Below, one piece after another: positions 6,402-26,588 of a stretch of DNA of 26,718 nucleotides (the stretch's first letter is position 1; each line of letters begins with the position of its first letter). Both the position numbers and the translations under genes were made by a program. A model generated the notes under the pieces. That model made no database searches. It worked only from the letters and a program-made list of their open reading frames with translations, and was not told the DNA's origin. This stretch comes from a virus (Duplodnaviria > Caudoviricetes). The stretch is taken from positions 1 to 26,718 of IMG/VR virus record IMGVR_UViG_3300011338_000520, one strand, 5' to 3'.

Positions 6402-8417
6402 CTACCTCTTTCTAGTCGCTACGATTGAAAACCTGTTTGATCCAGCAGCAACCAATGTGTTTGCAGAGTCAGACGCCCCGACTACTGAAACTGTTATCTG
6501 ACCAGGAGACATCTTACTTATCTGTCTAATCATTCCAATATTAGCAACAGCATTGGCCCCCGCTGTAGACGCCGAACTGAGTGACTGACCAGAAGTGAAC
6601 GACGAAATATCATTGTTACCGATGTTATTAATCCTTGCTCTGGCGGTAACTGTGCATGATCCGGCAGCCCTAGAGAAAGTAGCTAGATATTTAAACTCGT
6701 AATCACTCACACCATCAACAGCGTAGTTCTGTTGAAATAGGGTTCCTGCGCTGGTTGGAAGCGCAGAAGAGGTATAGTAACCAGTATGATAAAGCCTTGG
6801 TTCGTAATGCTTGGTTTCTTCTCCAGAGAAGATAGAAACGCTTTGGGTTTGAATCTGAGTTAAGAAAAGGTTTGTACTTGCTAAGTATTGATCAAGCATA
6901 AACAAGTCATCAACGTTAAACGATGACGCATTTCCTACGAAAATCTCAGAAGAAGATGTGTAGTTTTCAAATTGGAATACACTAACACTTCCGCTTGAAG
7001 ACGAAGAGAATCCAATAGAACAAAGATCTCCGGCAGTAGTGTCTGATGCTCCGATTGCTAATTGAGATGCAAACTCATTATCGACAAATAAGTAAACAAC
7101 TCCATTTAGAACCTTGATCACATACTCATGAATTACAGTTGTATCTAGAGGAATAAAGATCACTCCAGCATCACCAAAGTCAGAAATGGTAACGCCTTCA
7201 GTGGTGAATGAAACTGTGAAAGACCTATCTGCTGCGTCTTGTCTTACTTGAAGTCTAAATCCAGTCGCGGAAGACGTTGTAGCGGTTGTGTCTGAGACAG
7301 ACTGAACAAGCATTACTAACTTAATGTATGTATTAACAGTTGCGCTGGTAAGAGATACCTGAGGAACTGAAACAGACATTGAACTGGATGCGTTTGTAAA
7401 AGCGTTGTAAATACTGCTTACGTTTGTAATCGTTCCAGAAACAGAGAATCCAGTTGGAGCTGCTGAAAACATTGAAGCAACTTTTGCGGAAGGAATGTTT
7501 GCAGCAGGATCATACTCTCCAGAGAAGAATCCAAGCAAAGATGATCCTATAGACATAGATCCAATTGGACTAAGAAGTCCAAATGTTCCAGTTGAAATCT
7601 GAGTACCTTCTGCGACTCCATTTACATAAAGATTAGCAAGTCTAGAACCAGATGCAGGAGTGGCGTCAACAGATACTACGATGTTAAACCAGTTGCTTCC
7701 TGTGATGTTGGTCGTTCCAGTGATAGAAACAATGGCTTTTCTGGTGCTGTTTTCAGCAATGGAAGAAGTAAAAGAGAACTTAGCAAATCCGTTTGATGTG
7801 CATGAGATCTGTCCATTGATTTGAGGAATGGTTGCAATAACAGAACTCGTCTGAGCTCCTCGAACCCATAAACCAACAGTGATCTTTCCAGAAACGTTCT
7901 TAAAGAATTGCTGGAACACGTTGTTTGAAGCTCCACCAGCAATTAGGCTGCCCTCTCCAAACTTCTTGTTTGTAGTATCAAGAACTGTTGCGCAGCTCTT
8001 TTGGAAGGTAGTTCCAGGGGTCTGAGTGTAAGCTCCAGATACGGAAGACGAGACTTCATCAGCAAAGGTATTGAAAGTGTTAACAGTAAGAGCTTGAGAT
8101 GAAGCAGATACAAGATTTGCAATACTAATCTCGGGAGCGTCTTCCCAAGAAGCCTCACCGCTAATTGATTTAATCATGTAGCGAAGGCGCAAGATCTCAT
8201 CTTTAACCGAAGCTGCGTAGTTAGAACCAGAAATTGGACTTGGGTTAACAGTTTGTTGAGCGGCAGTTAGATTGAACACGTTATTCACAGTAGATGCGCC
8301 CTCCATCTCAGATGCGATGAAGTTGTTCAAAATATTATCGAACTCGTTATTCAGATCTTCATCTGTAAGAGTTTCGTCGTCTAACCAAATTTTTACACGA
8401 TTAAAGAGCGCCGAAAT
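6402..8417 (-). CDS. Tail fibre / receptor-binding protein with concanavalin A/LamG-like domain; proposed ATT start at 8417 (671 aa)
   Basis: The frame continues 30 codons upstream of the track start TTG8330 and encodes a typical tail-anchor N-terminus (SALFNRVKIWLDDETLTDEDLNNEFDNILNN); LamG-like motifs KKFGEGSL, ITVGLWVR, NWFNIVVS, LYVNGVAEG, NVDDL; Ser/Thr-rich. Confidence 0.8.
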   Translation of the reverse strand: MSALFNRVKIWLDDETLTDEDLNNEFDNILNNFIASEMEGASTVNNVFNLTAAQQTVNPSPISGSNYAASVKDEILRLRYMIKSISGEASWEDAPEISIANLVSASSQALTVNTFNTFADEVSSSVSGAYTQTPGTTFQKSCATVLDTTNKKFGEGSLIAGGASNNVFQQFFKNVSGKITVGLWVRGAQTSSVIATIPQINGQISCTSNGFAKFSFTSSIAENSTRKAIVSITGTTNITGSNWFNIVVSVDATPASGSRLANLYVNGVAEGTQISTGTFGLLSPIGSMSIGSSLLGFFSGEYDPAANIPSAKVASMFSAAPTGFSVSGTITNVSSIYNAFTNASSSMSVSVPQVSLTSATVNTYIKLVMLVQSVSDTTATTSSATGFRLQVRQDAADRSFTVSFTTEGVTISDFGDAGVIFIPLDTTVIHEYVIKVLNGVVYLFVDNEFASQLAIGASDTTAGDLCSIGFSSSSSGSVSVFQFENYTSSSEIFVGNASSFNVDDLFMLDQYLASTNLFLTQIQTQSVSIFSGEETKHYEPRLYHTGYYTSSALPTSAGTLFQQNYAVDGVSDYEFKYLATFSRAAGSCTVTARARINNIGNNDISSFTSGQSLSSASTAGANAVANIGMIRQISKMSPGQITVSVVGASDSANTLVAAGSNRFSIVATRKR

Positions 8418-8420
8418 AAG

Positions 8421-9119
8421 TCACCAACTGCTTTCTTTGAATAGTTTAGTTACTGCAAACCTACCGCCACCAGACAGGCTTATATGTTCTTTCATACTTC
8501 TAATAAAAACGCTTTTATCTTTAACATAAGCAATTAAATCACATCCAAGTTGACTTTGTACCACTGGTGTAACAGTTAAGCAGCCCTTTGTCCTTCTTGA
8601 TACAGACTTAACCTCAACGGTTACCCATTTGTCTCCCGATTTATATGAAACGTCTGGACCGTATTTCTTTGTTATTCTAGCCTCACACCCAAGATCTTTA
8701 AAGAAGTTATAAACCAAAACCTCAGCGTCTCTTCCTTTTCTGTGTATTGGGTTAGCCGTATCGTCAATAGACGAGATTCCTTTTAGTCTGTTCCTTCGCT
8801 CTGCAATTATAAGAGAGCAGTCATAGCAAACTCTGCCAGATGCGTACTTGCCATTTGTATATAACCTATATTCTTTGGGTCCAGGAAAGGTATCAAACAC
8901 AACAGAGCACTCTTTGCATGGTTGTGTGATCTTTGGAGACTTAGATCTTCTGATATACGGTTCTGTCTTCTTTCTTACTAATACCCTTCTCGAAACTCTT
9001 CTGCACTGATTACAGAGAGCACCCTGTAACTTCTTTCCGTCTAAATCACGAAACAAACCAGGACCATAGTTGGTCCGCTCTTTTGTTTCTTTGCATGATC
9101 TACAGACGTACTCACTCAC
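8421..9119 (-). mobile_element. Free-standing putative homing endonuclease: two CxxC...CxxC Zn-fingers plus a PD-(D/E)xK nuclease domain (232 aa from GTG9119)
   Basis: CRSC/CNQC and CKEC/CYDC; GRDAE...GPDV...VEVKS catalytic pattern; very basic; GGAGG 9 nt before GTG9119; sits between the nozzle and tail-fibre genes. Confidence 0.75.
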
Positions 9120-9120
9120 G

Positions 9121-10842
9121 TTATGTATCCTCCGGCGCTTCACCTTTATCCTTCTCACCAGAATCGCGATATGAAACCGTGATTCCAGTTAGACGGAAGT
9201 TATGCGCATCACTGTTATAAAATTTTAAACTAAGACTTCTTCCTCTTCCAGTAATCTTCAACCTTTGCTTTCTAGTTGAAGTTCCCTGAAGCCTTGACTG
9301 ATCCAGAATGAACGAGTCAAGCTGGTTCGCTTTTCCAAGATTGAACGATTTTGTACCTTGCTTGCGACCTTCTATGAACCAATCCATAGACAGGGTTACA
9401 TTTCCTGTTGGAATGTACTCAATCTCAACAAAGTCATATAACTTGTTTCTTGGGTCCTTGAAATCCATGTGAGGAGTCTGGAACTCAGAAGTGTATACCG
9501 ATGCATCCGTTCCAACGTATCGTCCCGCTTGATCCATTAAGTATACAAGTCCGTCCGAACTGCCATACATTAGTTCATTTACGAGAGTTACGTTTTTACG
9601 AAGTCCCAAGCTATTAGGCTGGAAGGCAGTCAGGAAAATCGCTTTCGGAGTGTTTTCACTGTAATCAAACTTCACAAGGAAGTTATTTAAGAGCGAAGAA
9701 GCGCCCCGATAAAGGAAGTATGCCGCTCGTTTCGCTTCGTGCCAAATTGCTTGCTGTTGACCAATCCCAAGGGAAGAAGTGTTCTCGTCTACCAAGGTCT
9801 GGATTCCTAAAGCCCTGTAAACGTTCGCAGCTTCGATTCCACCTAGGTTTAGAGTGGCAGATAGACTTTGCAGCATCCGAGTGTCTTGGATCGCAAAAAC
9901 GTCATCCTGAAGGGCTATAACACCTAACGATGAGGCAACCCCAATGTCATTGTTCAGCTTTGCAAAGTACCAACCAATCGGATTCCCAATGTCTGGTTGC
10001 TGAAGTTGATAAAGACCTTTTGGGTACTTTAAAACATGGAGCTTATTTTTAAACTCGAAAGCCGCCTGAACTCGTTCCCCCTCGCCAGGGTAAACGTTAA
10101 AAAGGGCAGTATTGAATGTGGTCGTAATTGTAAAGTCTTCGTGGCCTAACTCTGTTGAAGAAACAGTATTAGAACTACCATACACAAAGTGAGGCAGATT
10201 GCTCTGACCGAAAACAAAAACACGGTTAAAGAAAGAAACGCCAGATACAGGATACCGATCATGTCCGGTGGATCCATCCCAGTCAGCAGCAGGCTTTTGG
10301 ATATTTCGTCTAGTAACTGTCCCATTCTCTAACACCTGAATTTGCGATCCACCCGTGAAGATGAATAGCTTCTTAGGATTAGATGTTCCACCTGTTCCCA
10401 AGAACTCACGTCCACACTCTACAAATGTTACCTGACCAATAATTGACAGTCTAGCAGGAGCGGTGTTTCCAGTGTCGTCCTCAACCGTAGAGGGAACTAC
10501 TTCAATAAATACATAAGGATTTGAATAGCTGTAGACTCGTCCGTTCTGGGTAACAACAATAAGCCTCTGAGTTGCAGAATCGGGCCACCAGTCATAAACG
10601 CCTACAATCTTAGCCGGCCCAAGCGCAGGATCATCAACGTCAACAATGTGATCATAGTCAACGCCGTTGTAACTGAAGAACTTAATGTAAACGTATGCTC
10701 CGAAACACTTCTCGGCTACACCATTTCTCAGTTGAACGTTCTTTGCTGAAATTAATCTGTTTTCTGGAATTAAATTAGGGGCGACGTCTGACATCAGACC
10801 GCCCTGACCTACTGGTATCTGGATCTGCTTTCCTTCATACAT
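9121..10842 (-). CDS. Tail nozzle / tail tubular protein B (T7 gp12 / P22 gp10-like); start ATG10842 (573 aa)
   Basis: N-terminal 'GGL...AP..IP.N....A.NV' pattern, beta-propeller-like body, C-terminal 'GRGRSLSLKF'; TAATG coupling to the adaptor gene. Confidence 0.8.
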   Translation of the reverse strand: MYEGKQIQIPVGQGGLMSDVAPNLIPENRLISAKNVQLRNGVAEKCFGAYVYIKFFSYNGVDYDHIVDVDDPALGPAKIVGVYDWWPDSATQRLIVVTQNGRVYSYSNPYVFIEVVPSTVEDDTGNTAPARLSIIGQVTFVECGREFLGTGGTSNPKKLFIFTGGSQIQVLENGTVTRRNIQKPAADWDGSTGHDRYPVSGVSFFNRVFVFGQSNLPHFVYGSSNTVSSTELGHEDFTITTTFNTALFNVYPGEGERVQAAFEFKNKLHVLKYPKGLYQLQQPDIGNPIGWYFAKLNNDIGVASSLGVIALQDDVFAIQDTRMLQSLSATLNLGGIEAANVYRALGIQTLVDENTSSLGIGQQQAIWHEAKRAAYFLYRGASSLLNNFLVKFDYSENTPKAIFLTAFQPNSLGLRKNVTLVNELMYGSSDGLVYLMDQAGRYVGTDASVYTSEFQTPHMDFKDPRNKLYDFVEIEYIPTGNVTLSMDWFIEGRKQGTKSFNLGKANQLDSFILDQSRLQGTSTRKQRLKITGRGRSLSLKFYNSDAHNFRLTGITVSYRDSGEKDKGEAPEDT

Positions 10843-13715: not shown

Positions 13716-14321
13716 TTATTTTCCCTCTAATTTACTACTTAAATCTTTGATTACCATATTGAGCCTTTCTATCTCCGCTTGCAAGTCAACCTTACGTTGT
13801 CCAGCAGGTTGGGATTTAGACCATAACTCTAGGTTCTCAATTCTATTGTCATCTCGGATTCCATTCTTGTGATGAACATTTTCATGCTTCTCAAGAAATC
13901 TTCCAAGATGTCTTTCCATAACGAGACGATGCTGCCTGATGAAGTAATTTCTACTACCTCTGGCTTTTCTTGCTTGTACCGTAGGATGGTCTGGAGCTGT
14001 CTCTTCAACATATCCGTTTGTAATCCTTGTTTTACCAGCAATAACAGGGTCCCTGTAATCGTAACCGCATCTCTTTGAGCAGAAGTGACCAGCGTGGTTC
14101 CCTCTTTTTTTAGCTCTTTCGAGATGACACCTGTGAACTTCGAATTCTTTTCCACAATATAGACAGTTCTTTTTTGTGGAACTTTTCCTAGAAAGGCCAA
14201 TACATCTATTAGAGCAAAGAGATGCATAACGCATATACTTTGAGCTCCATCTAGATATAAAAACCTTTCCACAGACTTTACATTCTCCATTCAGGTCAGG
14301 TCTTGTAACCTTTCTTCCCAT
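13716..14321 (-). mobile_element. Free-standing HNH homing endonuclease with two N-terminal Zn-binding repeats
   Basis: CKVCGK...CSNRC and CLYCGK...CSKRC; [12 protein letters not shown]...[21 protein letters not shown] is a canonical HNH_3-type motif; inserted right after the MCP. Confidence 0.9.
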
Positions 14322-20000: not shown

Positions 20001-20465
20001 TTACTCCTTAAGTAAGTATTTTTTAATACAAGAATCATCATTTAAAGCGTACCAAAGCGCAATGTCAACAGCTCTCATGTTGGGGCATGTCTTGCCTTGT
20101 GTTCTTGCGGTATCGAATTCGTAGTGACACCAGATCTCTGAGTAAGGAATTTGATAAATCATTCGTATACTGTCTAGCTGATAACGAAGTGACTCGAACT
20201 GCTTAGGAGTGAACTTGTCAGTTCCTATGAGGCAAATCCCAATGTTACCCTTGTTGTGCATTTCAACATGGGCACCGCTCTCATTTAGTCCTCGACCCTT
20301 TTGAACCTCTCCGTCCGGTTGACAGACCAGATGATACCCAATGTCCTTGAATCCCCTCGCCAGATGGTCCTTCTTTATCTCCGAGATGTCTTTTCTCTGT
20401 CCGTTCTTGCTTGCTGAGCAGTGAATCGTTATTTTGTTTGGTTTTGCTGTTATTTCTTGAGCCAT
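20001..20465 (-). CDS. Endolysin, N-acetylmuramoyl-L-alanine amidase (Amidase_2, T7 gp3.5-like)
   Basis: IHCSA, DIGYH, GAHV, IGICLIG, CHYEF, KTCP: the Zn ligands His/His/Cys and catalytic Tyr/Lys pattern of T7 lysozyme. Confidence 0.92.
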   Translation of the reverse strand: MAQEITAKPNKITIHCSASKNGQRKDISEIKKDHLARGFKDIGYHLVCQPDGEVQKGRGLNESGAHVEMHNKGNIGICLIGTDKFTPKQFESLRYQLDSIRMIYQIPYSEIWCHYEFDTARTQGKTCPNMRAVDIALWYALNDDSCIKKYLLKE

Positions 20466-20524
20466 AGAATTTATCTACCCAACACTTGAAGCATCCGCTA
20501 TAGGCGCAGTTCATTCATAAATGA

Positions 20525-20860
20525 TCACTTACGAACATGCTCTAAGTAAAACAAAACTTGGCCCTCAGTGACAGCGCCAGAGCACTTTTTTCCTGGGTCC
20601 TTATACTTTTCAACGTTTAAGATCACCTGCTCATACAAGCAGCCAAGATCACGGTAAGAAATAGCGGCGTAGTTATCGAAGTCCTTACTCATGCATGAAA
20701 TGATTTGTTGATCTTGCCTGCGCTCAATCCCCGCAACAGACGAAGATCCCGCCCAAATCTTACCCTCCCAAGGAGGTTGAGCGATCGGAGTCGCGCAAGA
20801 TGCATAAATCATGCATAGAAATAACGCGTTAAGGCTTAGGCTTATTCGGGTTAAGTCCAT
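20525..20860 (-). CDS. Lipoprotein, putative o-spanin (Rz1-like)
   Basis: Signal peptide with lipobox YASC (Cys22); Pro-rich segment after the Cys; three further Cys; overlaps the upstream gene by 32 nt; adjacent to the endolysin. Confidence 0.6.
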   Translation of the reverse strand: MDLTRISLSLNALFLCMIYASCATPIAQPPWEGKIWAGSSSVAGIERRQDQQIISCMSKDFDNYAAISYRDLGCLYEQVILNVEKYKDPGKKCSGAVTEGQVLFYLEHVRK

Positions 20861-21053
20861 GCATCATATCTTCCAGGGTTTTTGTGTCTTTGTCTTTCAA
20901 AGATACCGCAACAGCATCATTAAAACGCTTCATAGCCTCTTTTCTCTCTTGGAGATCAGAGTACTCCTGAAACATCTTTACCACCTTGTTAAAGGCAGAA
21001 ATAAGGTCAGGCATCATCTTAACTAAGGCTAAAAACGCGCTTAAGTAAGCCAT
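20829..21053 (-). CDS. Putative i-spanin-like / membrane-associated lysis protein
   Basis: 74 aa; hydrophobic/amphipathic N-terminus then a coiled coil; its 3' end overlaps the lipoprotein gene as in overlapped spanin pairs. Confidence 0.45.
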   Translation of the reverse strand: MAYLSAFLALVKMMPDLISAFNKVVKMFQEYSDLQERKEAMKRFNDAVAVSLKDKDTKTLEDMMHGLNPNKPKP

Positions 21054-21292
21054 TACTTCAAGTTCTGAGGAACTACTTTATCTAAAAAAGAGCTAAGTCC
21101 AGATAGGATCTGACCAATTTTTACAACAGCAGCAGCTCCGATATCCAAGAAGCCTTTTACCAACAAAAGAAGGCTCTTAGGTTTTTCAGTTTTAAGCAAG
21201 CGCATTGCCAATTCCAATGCAACAGCTACTCCAGTAGCAGCAGCAGGAAGGTTGTTTGATACGAATTCTGCGATTTGATTTAAAATTTCCAT
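21053..21292 (-). CDS. Putative holin (79 aa, start ATG21292)
   Basis: GGAGG RBS upstream of MEILNQIAEF; two hydrophobic segments separated by a basic loop (RLLKTEKPK); in the lysis cassette. Confidence 0.55.
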   Translation of the reverse strand: MEILNQIAEFVSNNLPAAATGVAVALELAMRLLKTEKPKSLLLLVKGFLDIGAAAVVKIGQILSGLSSFLDKVVPQNLK

Positions 21293-21293
21293 T

Positions 21294-21473
21294 TTACTTG
21301 TCCTCCAGTTTACCAATTCTGTGTTCGTGCGTATCAAGTCTAGATATCGTCACAGCCACCTTGATGTTCAGCTCTTCTACTGATTTTTTCAAGCCTGATA
21401 AAATATTTAGACCATAAAGAGCTATCGGGACCATCACGGATTCTACAATTGTCTTGATAGTCTCATGGTCCAT
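21294..21473 (-). CDS. 59-aa membrane-anchored coiled-coil protein (holin-associated; not in the ORF track)
   Basis: MDHETIKTIVESVMVPIALYGLNILSGLKKSVEELNIKVAVTISRLDTHEHRIGKLEDK; hydrophobic N-half plus a heptad C-half ending 'HE.RI.KLE', common next to phage holins. Confidence 0.7.
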   Translation of the reverse strand: MDHETIKTIVESVMVPIALYGLNILSGLKKSVEELNIKVAVTISRLDTHEHRIGKLEDK

Positions 21474-21488
21474 TTTTAAATTCTCTCT

Positions 21489-21641
21489 CTAGTCTAACGC
21501 TTCGACAAGTTTTTTATCGCAGTGCAAGTATTTAGCTCCAAGCTGTTCGCATCCTTCCACCTTAATAAGATAAGCCGAAGTTCCGCATCCAGCGAGTAAA
21601 TATAAGCTAACTATCAATGAACTAAACAAAACAAGGCGCAT
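21489..21641 (-). CDS. 50-aa lipoprotein (not in the ORF track)
   Basis: MRLVLFSSLIVSLYLLAGC-GTSAYLIKVEGCEQLGAKYLHCDKKLVEALD; consensus lipobox LAGC; AGGAAGGTGA RBS. Confidence 0.8.
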   Translation of the reverse strand: MRLVLFSSLIVSLYLLAGCGTSAYLIKVEGCEQLGAKYLHCDKKLVEALD

Positions 21642-21647
21642 TATAAA

Positions 21648-23591
21648 TCACCTTCCTAAAATTAAACAATCAGCTTGAGTGTCCCTGTTTCCTGGGACGT
21701 TGTAGTTTGAAAAGATAAGTCCAAAAGCCGTAGTTGTTGGAGCTGAACCATTTGTAGTCATGAACGACGTATTACTGTTCCCTTGAGCATCATAACAAAT
21801 CAAATATGGCGCTCTTGTAAAAACTCCAGAGACAAAATTGATCGTGTAATCTCCGGTAGATGCTCTTGTTATCGAAGATATAAAATTGGTTGTCGTACCA
21901 GATTGATCATAAATCGTACAAGGAGTCGAGGTACACTGTGAGCGCTCACTTGCTCCGCCAAAACTTACCCATCCTGAAACACCTGCACCAGCGTATTTAC
22001 TCGTCACGCTTCCAACGAGAACAGGAGCCGGTAAAGATTGGTCAATCGCAAAAATGGTCCAACTTGTTCTTGTACCGTTTGTTCCATTTACAGTAAGTGT
22101 CCCGGTGTTTATTTTAAATTGAAGTTTTAAAGTAACAGAAGAAAGAGAATTTACGTTGTAAATTCCGCAAAATGACAATCCTTGGTCTGCTCCATTTACT
22201 GAAGAGTTTTGCAAGCTAGGTCCTGCAATAACAGTTGACCCATCTGTTAATTGAGCACCTAGAGTCGCTGTAGACACAGTGTTCCTGAATGTTGTATCTG
22301 TGCAAACGTAATAATTTCCAGTTTTCTTAGGTGTCCAAACAATTCCAGTTGTGCTTGCGCCTGCTGTTGTTACAGTCCCGAAGTTACTATTTGTCTTCTG
22401 AGTAAATGTACACGAAGCATCGTTGGCAGGGTCAGCGTATGTAGAGCTTGTAGTAGTCCACGAGCAATCAGTATCATGATACCCGCTCCATGAGTTCGCG
22501 AGTAAATCAGGTCGAACAGCAAGTTCCGAACCCCATCCCGTGATTGGAATATCAAAATTAAAACTTACCCCATGGCCAGAAGAGACTACGTTATTACCGT
22601 TTGGCTTTTCTATTGACGCATTGGCACTGGCTCTATATCCAAGGAAAACTTGGTTATTTGTTGATCCATCATAGAAAGGAACTAAACCTATCCCAGATAT
22701 GTAAAGCGAATTTGTACCAGCTACTACTTCACCAGTTCCTAAACCTTGAGCATTTGAAGAATTAGAAAGTTTAGAAGTGTCTATAGTGTAACCAGAAGGC
22801 AACTGGATATAAAATGGTGATGCTGTTGGAGTCCCGACCGTAAAGGACCCCCTAACTCGCATAGTGTCCCCATCACGCTTGTACCAAAAGTTAGATCCTG
22901 TAATGGTACCAGCTCCGTTAACCGTCCAGGTCAGATCGTTTTTCCAGCCTTGAATAACCGGAGCTAGACCAATGTTCCTCGCGCGTCCCAAATAGACATC
23001 ATCCACATAAAGTATTGGTTCATTGCTTGCCACAGAAACAATACGCGCTGAAAGGTTACCGCTTGAAGGTGCAACAAAGTTTAAAGTGCTTCGAACATAT
23101 GTAAGCGAGCTAGTAATTGTTTGAGAAGCGACAATGTTAGTTCCATCAAACGCTTGAATAGTATGCGTACAGGTACCGGTACCGCACTCAAGGTTTGCAC
23201 TTACTTCGTAGTTAGCGCCGTAATCACCTGCAGGAATTGCAACAGCAGTGCTTGTTAAAGTCTGAGATGCAGCAGATGAATCCCATGAGGCCGCATTTAC
23301 ACCGGACCCAACGTTTGCAGCCGTTGTCGTTAAAGTATAAGTTCCACCAGACGAAGTCCAACCAGTAGCTGAGCTAGAAGCTTCAAACCCAGGGTTGGCA
23401 ATGATGTTTGCATTGCCAGTCTCAACCAATGCTTTCACAGAATCAGTCTTAGTGATCTGACTAAAAGGAGCTTGAGTTTCAAAAGATACAGAACTTGAAC
23501 CGCCTTGGCCCTTTGCAGTGGTAGGAGGAAGTCCTGCGAGCGCTTGCGAGGTAATTAGAAAACTAACTAAAATTGTATTCAAAAATTTCAT
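21648..23591 (-). CDS. Sec-signal-bearing tail-fibre/adhesin-like protein (CBM4/9-like domain plus phage fibre C-terminal modules)
   Basis: AGGAG RBS; MKFLNTILVSFLITSQALA/GL signal peptide; NIIANPGFE...GW...LYVDDVYL CBM-like domain; 'WYKRDGDTMRVRG...IQLPSGYTID' and 'SITRASTGDYTINF' fibre-type motifs; 10 Cys. Confidence 0.75.
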   Translation of the reverse strand: MKFLNTILVSFLITSQALAGLPPTTAKGQGGSSSVSFETQAPFSQITKTDSVKALVETGNANIIANPGFEASSSATGWTSSGGTYTLTTTAANVGSGVNAASWDSSAASQTLTSTAVAIPAGDYGANYEVSANLECGTGTCTHTIQAFDGTNIVASQTITSSLTYVRSTLNFVAPSSGNLSARIVSVASNEPILYVDDVYLGRARNIGLAPVIQGWKNDLTWTVNGAGTITGSNFWYKRDGDTMRVRGSFTVGTPTASPFYIQLPSGYTIDTSKLSNSSNAQGLGTGEVVAGTNSLYISGIGLVPFYDGSTNNQVFLGYRASANASIEKPNGNNVVSSGHGVSFNFDIPITGWGSELAVRPDLLANSWSGYHDTDCSWTTTSSTYADPANDASCTFTQKTNSNFGTVTTAGASTTGIVWTPKKTGNYYVCTDTTFRNTVSTATLGAQLTDGSTVIAGPSLQNSSVNGADQGLSFCGIYNVNSLSSVTLKLQFKINTGTLTVNGTNGTRTSWTIFAIDQSLPAPVLVGSVTSKYAGAGVSGWVSFGGASERSQCTSTPCTIYDQSGTTTNFISSITRASTGDYTINFVSGVFTRAPYLICYDAQGNSNTSFMTTNGSAPTTTAFGLIFSNYNVPGNRDTQADCLILGR

Positions 23592-23607
23592 ACTAATCTC
23601 CTAAAAA

Positions 23608-25140
23608 TCAATCTGTGAACCAAGCTAGTCCGTAGCTCTGAGTTCCGCTCTCTGAAATAACTCGAATTGTTGGGCACGCTGGTACGTAATCAATCGAACG
23701 CCCTGGCTGAAGCTGCATTCCGATAGTTGTTGTTGGATCTGTTGATCCGTAACGAACTCGAATGTTCGCAGTATTCCCAGCCGGTGTGAACAACTGAAAA
23801 CCTCGGCAGTTAGCAGGTGCCGTGTTTGAGTCCGCCGTTACTGCTCCAACAGTCTCATCAACGTAGGTACTTGTTGAAGGCGTGCTTTGAGTAATTCCGA
23901 CCACTAGCTCACCTGAAGAGTTTGTCTTGATAGCGCGGGCATTAGTCCCATCGCTTCCCAAGATAAATGCCCCAGTAGTAGGGATAGCGGATCCTGCAGT
24001 GGCTTTAATGGTCGCAGGGTCTGTGGCTAACTCCCCAGCACTTGTGATCAACGCTGTATCAGTGCCATCGTTTAGCTGTGTGGACGATCCAGTTGCCTGC
24101 ACTACGCGAACCGCCCCTGTGGCAGTGCCCGTGCCGTTAGCAATTTTAGTGTTTAAAGCCGACAAAGTTGCTTCTGTCGCTGCTCCAGTAGGAAGTGCAG
24201 AAGATGTGATATCAGCATCAACTAACAATTTACCTGCAGGATTTACTTTCACATCAACATAAGTACCGCCTCCTCCAGAAGAAAGCCCATGGATGACAGT
24301 GTTTGTAGTAAGAGCTTGGTCTGTCGATGTTATAGCTGAACCAATTTGGTTGATCGTTGCCGGAATGTTAGATCCATTCACGATCATCGTTCGCTGGGTG
24401 CCATCGGTTTGAATCGCGCTAGTTGCGGCACCACTTGGAAGCGGCAATGATGATGCAGATACGGGTTGAGTTACACCACTGCCATCAACCGGCACTCTTC
24501 CAGAAACAAGAGACGGAGTCTTTGTATCGATAGACCCTAAAGTAGTCTCAGTCGCAGCTCCAGAAGGCAAAGCGCTTTGAGTTACATTCACATCTAATGA
24601 CTGATCAGATCCTATCAAAGTAGATGTGATTTGATTCCCTAATCCATCCTGAGTAAGAGAATTAACTGTATCGGTTGAAGAGCTTAGATTTCTAATAACC
24701 ACTTCACCGCTCGTGGTGACTGATACTGCCTGAAGATCTCCGTTACTGTCTTTGCCTCCAATAAGACCCGCTTCGGCAGGAATTGGGGTACCAGGAGTTC
24801 CAGAGGTGTTAGACGTAACTGAAGCTTCTACTTTAAGCTGTCCGTCTGAATTGACCTGAAGCGGAGTATAGTCCCCATCTGCAACTCCAGTAAGTGGCCC
24901 TAAAGAGTCCTTGCGAACACTGAGAGTGGTTAATCCCTTGTCTCCAGGAATTGTGGCCGCAGAACCAATGTCTTTTGATCCGTCAATAGTGACAGCTCCA
25001 GGGGGAAGGTTAATATCAAGTCCATACTTGCCTCCTCCTAGTGAAGTTCCAGTTGCGGCCTTATTCAGATTTGGAAGCTGAATCGAATCAGCGTAAGCTA
25101 CGTTAAATAAACAAAGAGCTAATAGAATAAACTTTTTCAT
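23608..25140 (-). CDS. Sec-signal-bearing fibre-shaft protein with repeats and a C-terminal knob (510 aa, start ATG25140)
   Basis: ATGA coupling to the upstream gene; MKKFILLALCLFNVAYA/DS signal peptide; 3x LP(S/T)GAAT repeats; 5x beta-hairpin-like 'V.xxG.L.V' repeats. Confidence 0.75.
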   Translation of the reverse strand: MKKFILLALCLFNVAYADSIQLPNLNKAATGTSLGGGKYGLDINLPPGAVTIDGSKDIGSAATIPGDKGLTTLSVRKDSLGPLTGVADGDYTPLQVNSDGQLKVEASVTSNTSGTPGTPIPAEAGLIGGKDSNGDLQAVSVTTSGEVVIRNLSSSTDTVNSLTQDGLGNQITSTLIGSDQSLDVNVTQSALPSGAATETTLGSIDTKTPSLVSGRVPVDGSGVTQPVSASSLPLPSGAATSAIQTDGTQRTMIVNGSNIPATINQIGSAITSTDQALTTNTVIHGLSSGGGGTYVDVKVNPAGKLLVDADITSSALPTGAATEATLSALNTKIANGTGTATGAVRVVQATGSSTQLNDGTDTALITSAGELATDPATIKATAGSAIPTTGAFILGSDGTNARAIKTNSSGELVVGITQSTPSTSTYVDETVGAVTADSNTAPANCRGFQLFTPAGNTANIRVRYGSTDPTTTIGMQLQPGRSIDYVPACPTIRVISESGTQSYGLAWFTD

Positions 25141-25481
25141 CTCGGACCTTTCATGAAGTTCATTGTGATGACTCCTTGGTCTGCATCTGCACCTGAAGCC
25201 CGTAGCCCTATGCTTTGGCCTGCGTTTAAGATGCAATGTAAATGAGCAGATCCAAGACCCATGAACCCAACTGAAAAAAGATATGCGCCCAAAGAATCCA
25301 CAACAATAAGTTCGATAGGACTTCCAGAAGTGTTTTCATACTCAATCTCATTTACATCTGCGTTTAATGTGTTCGGAGAAGAGTTGGATCCAGAATCATT
25401 CACTAGTTGGATTGCAGTGATTGTCGAGGAATCAATCGGGGTCGCAGTTAAATCTTGGCTAAACTTTTGAATGAGTACCAT
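25137..25481 (-). CDS. Small beta-rich putative virion protein (no signal peptide)
   Basis: 114 aa; GGAGG RBS; TAATG and ATGA coupling on either side; 'EIEYENTSG...LNAGQSIGLRA' pattern. Confidence 0.65.
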   Translation of the reverse strand: MVLIQKFSQDLTATPIDSSTITAIQLVNDSGSNSSPNTLNADVNEIEYENTSGSPIELIVVDSLGAYLFSVGFMGLGSAHLHCILNAGQSIGLRASGADADQGVITMNFMKGPR

Positions 25482-25780: not shown

Positions 25781-25947
25781 TTTGTCTTCCCCTTTTGTTT
25801 AACGTAGGTACCGTTTTCTTTCTCTTGGATACGTTTTAAGTCTCTTCGAGCAGTCTTTAGATCAACAGGACCGTAACTCTTTCGTTCGGTTTTATTATCG
25901 GTGGTTTTGGCTTTCTGGTCAAAAACCTCCATGCCTTTAATCTTCAT
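25777..25947 (-). CDS. 56-aa basic hypothetical protein (not in the ORF track)
   Basis: MKIKGMEVFDQKAKTTDNKTERKSYGPVDLKTARRDLKRIQEKENGTYVKQKGKTK; GGAGG RBS; ATGA overlaps with both neighbours. Confidence 0.75.
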   Translation of the reverse strand: MKIKGMEVFDQKAKTTDNKTERKSYGPVDLKTARRDLKRIQEKENGTYVKQKGKTK

Positions 25948-26588
25948 AACCCCTCCAGAGGATCTTCTTCTTTCGAGGTGACCTCTTCAAACTCAGCCTC
26001 GAAGGGAAGTTCTTCTTTTGCTTCTGATTTGTTCTTATTGATGATGTCAAATACCTGGGAAACGAGAGTGGTCTTATTCTCGATTGTTTCTTTTGGTTTT
26101 CCTAAGGCGCGGTCCATGAAGTGTTTAGCAGCGTCCAATCTGGTAGCGCCCTTTTCTTCTTCGTCACTCATGAGCTTGTAGGTGGTCATGATTGCTTCGG
26201 GAAGAATCTTCTGGAAGACCTTTGTGATATCGGAGTCTATAAGGCTCTTATTTACCCGATTAAGCTCGGCTTGCACGGATCTTGAGCTCAATATCAAATG
26301 AACTTGCTTTGGTTTAATTTGGAGTTCTTTAGCGATCACTCGTTCTGGGAATCCGAGAGATGCATAATAGATGACCATTCTAGTTACTTGATCGCCTTGC
26401 TCTTCCATTGGGAGATTTGGGATTTCTGAAACGGCGGCTCTTAGCTTTGCAACGGTCTTCTTTCTTCTATCACCGATCTCTTGCATGTTTGAGACGACTT
26501 CTCCCTCGGAAAGTAGTTGATGCTTTCGGTGCGTACTATCTCGAAGTTTTCGCTTTACTTTCGGTTTAGGGTTTTCTTCCACTATCAT
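25944..26588 (-). CDS. Putative terminase small subunit (HTH plus oligomerisation helices); start uncertain
   Basis: HTH-like 'SLGFPERVIAKELQIKPKQVHLIL'; 'EAIMTTYKLM.....TRLDAAKHFMDRALGKP' motif typical of TerS-like proteins; acidic tail; first gene after the promoter. Confidence 0.65.
   Translation of the reverse strand: MIVEENPKPKVKRKLRDSTHRKHQLLSEGEVVSNMQEIGDRRKKTVAKLRAAVSEIPNLPMEEQGDQVTRMVIYYASLGFPERVIAKELQIKPKQVHLILSSRSVQAELNRVNKSLIDSDITKVFQKILPEAIMTTYKLMSDEEEKGATRLDAAKHFMDRALGKPKETIENKTTLVSQVFDIINKNKSEAKEELPFEAEFEEVTSKEEDPLEGL

Follow-up and report, generated by a model that had tools for sequence, protein, structure and literature searches.

Candidate Sec-exported fiber proteins of tailed phages: conserved leaders, paired cysteines, and arm-socket partners

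We analyzed the virus record IMGVR_UViG_3300011338_000520 over its full length of 26,718 nucleotides (here called the window), a 26.7-kb record with a podovirus late region on the minus strand. Two adjacent late genes, A and B, very likely encode fiber-like proteins that are exported through the Sec pathway. Between the terminase small subunit gene (terS) and the lysis genes, the order is C (114 amino acids [aa], leaderless), A (510 aa), B (647 aa), and the lipoprotein gene D (50 aa), with overlaps or gaps of at most 16 nt between them. On the strength of leader conservation, cysteine counts, and co-variation between neighboring genes, we consider it probable that C, A, and B would form a serial appendage, with distal parts that fold periplasmically and attach to the particle when the cell lyses.

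Leaders and cysteines of A and B

Signal calls were made with our own heuristic (basic n-region, 8-residue h-region, and A-x-A site) and a check by eye, not with SignalP. Applied to 448 nonredundant open reading frames (ORFs) of at least 300 aa from phage loci, the heuristic returned 108 positives: 72 B-like proteins, 7 A-like proteins, and 29 others, about 7 of which look false by eye. An earlier, sequence-only reading of the window had placed cleavable signal peptides at the starts of A and B, and both leaders and their ORFs were recovered at the coordinates that it gave. The starts themselves are well supported. A starts at 25140, where its ATGA overlaps the stop of C, and has no further ATG, GTG, or TTG within its first 120 codons; the start of B, at 23591, is preceded by AGGAG, and none of the three other possible starts within 120 codons has a real ribosome-binding site (RBS), which leaves no credible downstream start. 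Each leader has a basic n-region, an h-region, and an A-x-A site. The hydropathy of the h-region (9-residue Kyte-Doolittle) reaches 3.3 in A and 2.4 in B, and no hydrophobic segment follows the leader in either protein (maximum over a 19-residue window, 1.0 in A and 1.2 in B). Contigs from two public sequencing runs, either of which may be the source sample, span 30 of 30 bins of the window with no indel listed; a single residue change, L18F in B, was seen in or near the leaders among the 14 listed strain differences that were tested.

The same reading had proposed a conservation check on homologs, and for B the outcome was clear. A leader was called in 115 of the 120 B homologs listed, in 117 of 126 further representatives (the new ones among the best 150 profile matches), and in 72 of 75 B-type genes of fetched loci, from which 20 near-duplicates had been dropped. 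Three of the five misses among the 120 homologs are leader-like by eye and the other two are distant signal-less proteins; the three misses among the loci comprise one start error, one protein with an h-region only, and L033, which is truly signal-less. B-family leaders diverge in sequence yet keep the n/h/c structure and an A-x-A directly before the conserved arms. The family is large: a profile of the arm plus the carbohydrate-binding module (CBM) matched 678 clusters (50% identity) at an E value of 1e-30 or better and 2502 clusters at 0.001 or better, although the weak matches may be unrelated CBMs. The A family is mixed, with 37 of the 120 listed matches leader-positive and 81 negative.

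Mature B contains 10 cysteines, and mature A contains 2. Even counts were found in 111 of 115 B homologs, 102 of 108 long representatives, and 58 of 61 complete locus genes, compared with 52 of 78 signal-less control proteins (P = 3.6e-5). All 11 leader-bearing genes upstream of B also had even counts, and the signal-less upstream genes were cysteine-poor (0.26 versus 1.78 Cys per 100 aa). We take the even counts as an independent sign that B would meet an oxidizing compartment.

Because leader conservation and even cysteine counts coincide with a domain in common with the disulfide-bonded tip of a Bdellovibrio surface adhesin (described below), export is strongly supported, and the leaders of A and B very likely direct their proteins through Sec. 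Since both proteins combine export-signal-like leaders with paired cysteines, they likely fold outside the cytoplasm. Three signal-less proteins that carry B-type domains with cysteines would fit an alternative in which the leaders are not working export signals, and A and B are assembled in the cytoplasm or at the inner membrane with the leader as a tether or assembly propeptide, or are translated from a downstream start. We find this very doubtful in view of the lack of an alternative start in A and of one with an RBS in B, the n/h/c structure and A-x-A that divergent leaders keep directly before conserved arms, and the even-cysteine parity together with homology to a disulfide-bonded exported tip.

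Proposed arms, sockets, and virion-side partners

To define socket classes, the last 135 residues of the genes upstream of B were clustered, which gave seven classes with at least three members, each paired with one kind of mature B arm. Socket class predicts arm class (adjusted mutual information, 0.61; 0 of 5000 shuffles; n = 70, with L033 and genes without an upstream neighbor dropped and the window added), the arm classes having been defined after viewing the data. The nearest neighbor had the same socket class in 55 of 62 cases by arm and in 43 of 62 by CBM (chance, 29%), and on a quick CBM tree the window's socket class requires at least three origins. A further set of 19 loci combined those fetched by the C-terminal domain of A alone with earlier loci and the window. 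An A-type C-terminal domain was followed by a GLPPT-like arm in all 19 (14 of them exact), and in 7 of the 15 displayed loci the arm sat on a gene that is otherwise not B-like. Among the 19, the A protein carries a leader in 7 and none in 12 (two of the 12 have doubtful starts), so, depending on the phage, the socket-arm pair would either stay on a single side of the membrane or span it. A common docking motif at the start of A proteins was also considered and dropped, as it occurred in 16 of 27 leader-bearing and 22 of 34 signal-less proteins and did not discriminate between them. Signal-less upstream proteins of L031, L052, L079, L091, and L099 begin with an IQ(N/D)xDVK arm, which follows the leader in L030, L040, L043, and L047; the presence of this arm on both kinds of protein suggests longer chains with a movable export boundary.

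The loci of relatives were drawn from viral, metagenome, and genome sequences, and their morphotypes were read from gene order by eye. B-type genes in these loci, as in three Bdellovibrionota prophages, occupy the usual place of the tail fiber; they follow tail, baseplate, or capsid genes, usually precede lysis genes, and the gene orders around them are those typical for podo-, sipho-, and myoviruses. The sequence-only reading had stressed the position of the module beside terS and far from the tail block; that is accurate for this genome, but in most relatives the genes sit in the tail or head block. The gene directly upstream of B is signal-less in 56 of 67 cases. Of 69 upstream genes, 44 were scanned: 6 have a T7 gp17-like tail N terminus, 8 are stubs of 190 to 197 aa that match only the start of Mu gp49-type families 346 to 1018 positions long, and 22 have no PHROG match. 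A virion-anchor domain (gp17- or gp49-like) is thus present in 14 of the 44, and such domains also occur in prophages. Three Bdellovibrionota prophages show a stub followed by an exported-type fiber (G157, G100, and G126). The G157 prophage is a podovirus with an integrase on a 3.4-Mb contig; the G100 prophage is a myovirus on a 1.5-Mb contig, in which a baseplate wedge gene, a 201-aa stub, and a leader-bearing 584-aa fiber gene were found. In relatives that have only a stub, the exported fiber after the tail-anchored signal-less stub is probably the main receptor-binding protein.

Two further arrangements were noticed among these loci. L047 (990 to 12412), on a 160-kb contig, has at least four large leader-bearing fiber-like genes in a row. 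In L140 (3963 to 4679), L044 (11901), and L036 (11851), the exported-type fiber is followed by a leader-bearing, cysteine-rich gene of 210 to 240 aa, in the place usually occupied by a tail fiber chaperone.

C is predicted to be a small jelly roll (AlphaFold predicted local distance difference test [pLDDT], 89.6) and is a free-standing version of the domain type found at the end of A-like proteins, of which it represents a second subtype. Five C-like genes were found, each preceding a leader-bearing gene and four lying just after the major capsid gene. A likeness of C to PRD1 P5 (Atlas; score, 0.75) was kept as a lead only. A second family of small signal-less beta proteins occurs in L007, L119, L120, L121, L126, L127, and L129, often in two copies flanking the A-B pair, and was not found in the window; it may provide a virion-side base for signal-less A proteins. 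Small decoration-like beta proteins with leaders also occur (L003, 11815 to 12339; L122, 8614; L118, 13620 to 14018; L021, 12496 to 12840; L026, 11866 to 12180), a hint that capsid ornaments may be exported too.

The sequence-only reading had counted the lipoprotein as a member of the module. D has a lipobox and a weak match to an unnamed PHROG (E = 0.005), but a small lipoprotein follows only 4 of 63 B genes, and D was rejected as a core part; D-like genes also follow B in the partial loci L001 and L034. The same count bears on whether A and B act as soluble blockers or decoys for receptors on debris or in the envelope and spare progeny with the help of D. Such proteins would follow the logic of T5 Llp, in which receptor occupation keeps progeny from being inactivated, and would suit the lectin-like folds, the lipoprotein after B in the window, and the late position beside lysis genes in most loci. 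Blockers would have no need of an N-terminal arm matched to a tail-anchored stub, however, and in stub-only phages, the G100 prophage for one, the tail module would contain no visible full-length fiber; together with the rarity of the lipoprotein, this makes a decoy role distinctly improbable.

Domains of B, probable hosts, and the window context

Searches of Pfam and PHROGs returned nothing for A, B, or C, and the A profile had no sequence match among solved structures. The AlphaFold monomer of B (mean pLDDT, 79) shows, in order, a low-confidence arm (residues 20 to 57), a CBM4-like domain, a less certain beta domain, then a TNF-like domain, and, at the C terminus, a beta domain of no assigned fold. 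At the sequence level, the B family profile matches 8OKW with an E value of 2.4e-20, in a paralogous repeat of the TNF-like domain. According to passages of PMC10769870, 8OKW is the MAT tip of Bd2734, a TNF fold that contains disulfides, and all 21 MATs of Bdellovibrio bacteriovorus have a domain of about 130 aa after the signal. B would be trimeric, as the TNF-like fold implies, and its MAT-type tip domain lies inside the protein and not at its end. B is a mosaic: in one relative the arm is identical and the end 30% identical, and another is 95 to 97% identical over the last three domains yet has a different arm and a different upstream gene.

A profile hidden Markov model (HMM) of the MAT N-terminal domain, built from 30 copies and giving 21 to 25 matches per genome in two genomes, had no match in the six frames of the window, and its best E value among A and B homologs was 0.007. 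Since this HMM finds the beta domain of about 130 aa neither in the window nor in the B family, B is, judged by sequence, a carrier that works like a MAT tip yet is not a MAT. MAT fibers such as Bd2734 resemble A and B in having a signal peptide, a mosaic phage-like fiber, and a TNF-like tip with disulfides, on which residues 365 to 516 of B superpose. They differ in being chromosomal and surface displayed, with the conserved domain after the signal, whereas A and B are phage late genes without that domain and with swappable short arms paired to signal-less partners.

The domain shared with the Bd2734 tip, the occurrence of B domains in chromosomal Bdellovibrionota proteins, and the existence of temperate members would all be expected if A and B were MAT-like adhesins on the surface of the predator, infected or lysogenic, encoded by a late-operon moron and never placed on the particle. 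We consider this unlikely. A and B have neither a transmembrane segment nor a lipobox and lack the MAT N-terminal domain; display would also leave the tail-anchored signal-less stubs without a receptor-binding tip and the co-variation of arms with cytoplasmic socket partners unexplained. Among the three options raised by the sequence-only reading (fibers clipped onto virions at lysis, adhesins on the infected host, or released decoys), clipping onto virions is clearly favored because the exported fiber of relatives follows signal-less anchored stubs without a long fiber body and because arm and socket co-vary; surface display loses ground for want of a membrane anchor and a MAT N-terminal domain.

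The B profile matched 22 of 401 Bdellovibrionota genomes, in many cases through one domain of a host protein, and 2 of 401 Myxococcota genomes. The A profile matched none of the 401 Bdellovibrionota genomes, and neither did the window's portal, which is no evidence of absence in either case. The host of the window phage is likely a member of Bdellovibrionota, read from the B family only because the portal gave no match, and hundreds of relatives likely infect predatory Bdellovibrio-type bacteria. Matches in metagenome-assembled genomes labeled Saccharibacteria, Dependentiae, and Nannocystis lie on phage-like contigs that may be misbinned and were not used for host assignment. The Bdellovibrionota chromosomes L057, L058, L065, L066, L068, L070, and L071 encode leader-bearing proteins of about 200 aa that end in the C-terminal domain of B, several of them adjoining genes like those of sugar or lipopolysaccharide biosynthesis; these could possibly be a host family of secreted lectins.

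Family matches in the window (Pfam or PHROGs) identify terS, TerL, a portal-like gene, the major capsid gene, an SU10-type adaptor, and an amidase endolysin (phrog_822, E = 1e-33; PF01510). The 114-aa signal-less beta protein, the lipoprotein, terS, and the lysis genes all lie where the sequence-only reading had put them (Table 1). The overlaps and short gaps around the module predict a single transcript; promoter-like sites are at chance level (8 versus 11.4 expected), a terminator scan was near chance, and no RNA data set was listed as containing the sequence. Holin and spanin roles in the lysis cassette are inferred from sequence and layout.

Table 1. Coordinates of the module and of its neighbors in the window
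Feature	Positions	Strand	Basis and remarks
C, 114-aa signal-less single jelly-roll protein	25137..25481	-	AlphaFold model; clusters with C-terminal domains of the A family; likely cytoplasmic virion-side socket
A, 510-aa leader-bearing stalk protein	23608..25140	-	LPxGAATE-type repeats; beta domain at the C terminus; likely extender that links C to B
Predicted Sec/signal peptidase I leader of A, 17 aa	25090..25140	-	ATGA overlap with the stop of C; no other start codon
C-terminal socket domain of A, residues about 408-510	23611..23919	-	HMM E 8e-26; GLPPT-like arm next in 19/19 loci
B, 647-aa leader-bearing multidomain lectin-like fiber, 10 Cys	21648..23591	-	Sequence and AlphaFold model
Predicted Sec/signal peptidase I leader of B, 19 aa	23535..23591	-	Similarity to homologs starts again at GLPPT, behind A-x-A
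Mature N-terminal GLPPT arm of B, residues 20-57	23421..23534	-	Likely docking peptide; modeled with low confidence in the monomer
CBM4-like domain of B, residues 58-207	22971..23420	-	Z 17.6, root mean square deviation 2.0, 140 aligned to 4bj0
TNF-like domain of B, residues 365-516	22044..22499	-	Z 16.6, root mean square deviation 2.2, 143 aligned to 8okw (Bd2734 MAT tip)
D, 50-aa lipoprotein, accessory	21489..21641	-	LAG/C box and Cys pair
Lysis cassette: two small holin-like genes, likely i-/o-spanin pair, amidase endolysin	20001..21473	-	Amidase at 20001-20465
Terminase small subunit (context)	25944..26582	-	phrog_2538, E 1.3e-8
Signal-less putative tail fiber of the podovirus tail block (context)	6402..8417	-	Between nozzle-like and ejection-like genes

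A separate signal-less fiber in the tail block had also been claimed for this genome. Its product is indeed signal-less, but it has no family match in Pfam or PHROGs and its frame has no ATG, GTG, or TTG at the natural start. An ATT stands at 8417 (minus strand), directly after the stop of a cysteine-rich endonuclease-like gene (8421 to 9158, minus strand), and four sequencing runs list no other letter at this start; the frame possibly starts at ATT, or its start was possibly disturbed by insertion of the endonuclease-like gene. An HNH endonuclease gene (13716 to 14321, minus strand) is an insertion that separates the major capsid gene from two small decoration-like genes.

Proposed assembly at lysis and its meaning

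In the route that we favor, Sec would export A and B, and signal peptidase I would free the arm of each as a new N terminus. Host Dsb enzymes would oxidize the five cysteine pairs of B, and both proteins would be stored in the periplasm. The GLPPT arm of B would plug into the last domain of A. The arm of A would bind signal-less C, and C would bind the particle. Once the holin and endolysin have acted, and no later than the removal of the outer membrane by the spanins, A and B would come into contact with finished particles that carry the signal-less socket. Passages of PMC6139136 state that spanins act last and that the disulfides of the lambda spanins depend on host Dsb. Because the tail block has its own fiber and four of the five C-like genes directly follow the major capsid gene, attachment in the window phage would probably be on the head or as an accessory fiber.

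The same genomic evidence would accommodate fibers that join particles only outside the cell after lysis, or that serve as a public good by arming particles from other cells. Other phages have tail spikes and decoration proteins that can attach to completed particles in vitro, but dilution after lysis should be less efficient than mixing within a closed outer membrane or prey shell, and we give joining outside the cell only a faint chance.

Several observations weigh against docking of periplasmic fibers at lysis. The signal calls in all counts are heuristic. Even-cysteine parity is weak in the A family (28 of 37 leader-bearing members, mostly with 0 Cys), and the signal-less proteins P0102, P0113, and L033 carry B-type domains with 6 to 14 Cys, so that export is not strictly needed for such domains. 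Arm and socket are adjacent in DNA, and linkage alone would therefore give some co-variation; the socket classes are also clustered on the quick CBM tree, and the arm classes were set post hoc. The structural ties of C (Z, 6.7 to 8.0) reach Ena pilin, a PR772 virion chain, TNF, cement proteins, and turret proteins, a nonspecific match that does not identify a virion anchor on C. In the window, A and B both carry leaders while the tail has its own fiber, and the portal was found in no Bdellovibrionota genome. B had no match in 50,697 GenBank phage records, and no cultured phage was matched.

Multipart fiber chains are known. In T4 (gp34 to gp37), G7C, CBA120, and SP6/K1-5, a virion-anchored proximal part receives a separate receptor-binding part that docks by its N terminus. 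Those parts are made and joined in the cytoplasm and have no signal peptides, whereas the distal part described here bears a leader together with paired cysteines. In relatives, the anchor domains of T7 gp17 or Mu gp49-type fibers stand at the start of the upstream stubs, but the stubs end in a small socket-like domain, and the receptor-binding tip is a separate leader-bearing gene. Filamentous phages (Inoviridae) have Sec-leader virion proteins, pIII and pVIII, with disulfide-bonded receptor-binding domains; these are membrane anchored and assembled in nonlytic extrusion, in contrast to the window, which represents a lytic tailed phage with a terminase, a portal-like gene, and an amidase and in which A and B have no membrane anchor. 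T5 Llp, Cor of phi80 and N15, and lambda Lom and Bor are phage proteins that are exported and whose genes lie among late or lysis genes, and a small lipoprotein beside a receptor-binding gene is a likeness to them; they stay in the host envelope and are not fibers, and D is present in few loci.

No description of Sec-exported fibers of tailed phages was found in a full-text literature search, with supplements and most subscription papers outside its reach. Passages of a preprint (10.64898/2026.09.13.751334) state that the P22 tailspike has no signal peptide since export is unneeded, and those of PMC5723332 count signal peptides in two Bacteroides phages only. We could not find the assembly route of export, periplasmic folding, and docking at lysis described for tailed phages.

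A more far-reaching proposal, which we regard as rather unlikely, is a two-compartment adsorption gear in tailed phages of predatory bacteria: a peptide-and-socket code with a sliding export boundary, and an outer fiber built from the predator's own prey-binding lectin domains, with which the particle would bind prey and await the predator there or in the prey shell.

In the textbook view, tailed phages finish their particles in the cytoplasm, and their fibers are therefore limited to folds that need no disulfides. If the interpretation given here is true, a receptor-binding part that is exported by Sec, folded in the periplasm, and attached at lysis would add a second route of assembly, one that would explain how phages could capture disulfide-rich lectin domains of their hosts. 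Many short tail fiber genes in uncultured phages would then be stubs, with the real tip filed as a secreted hypothetical protein. The B family is large, spans podo-, sipho-, and myoviruses, and includes intact-looking prophages in Bdellovibrionota.

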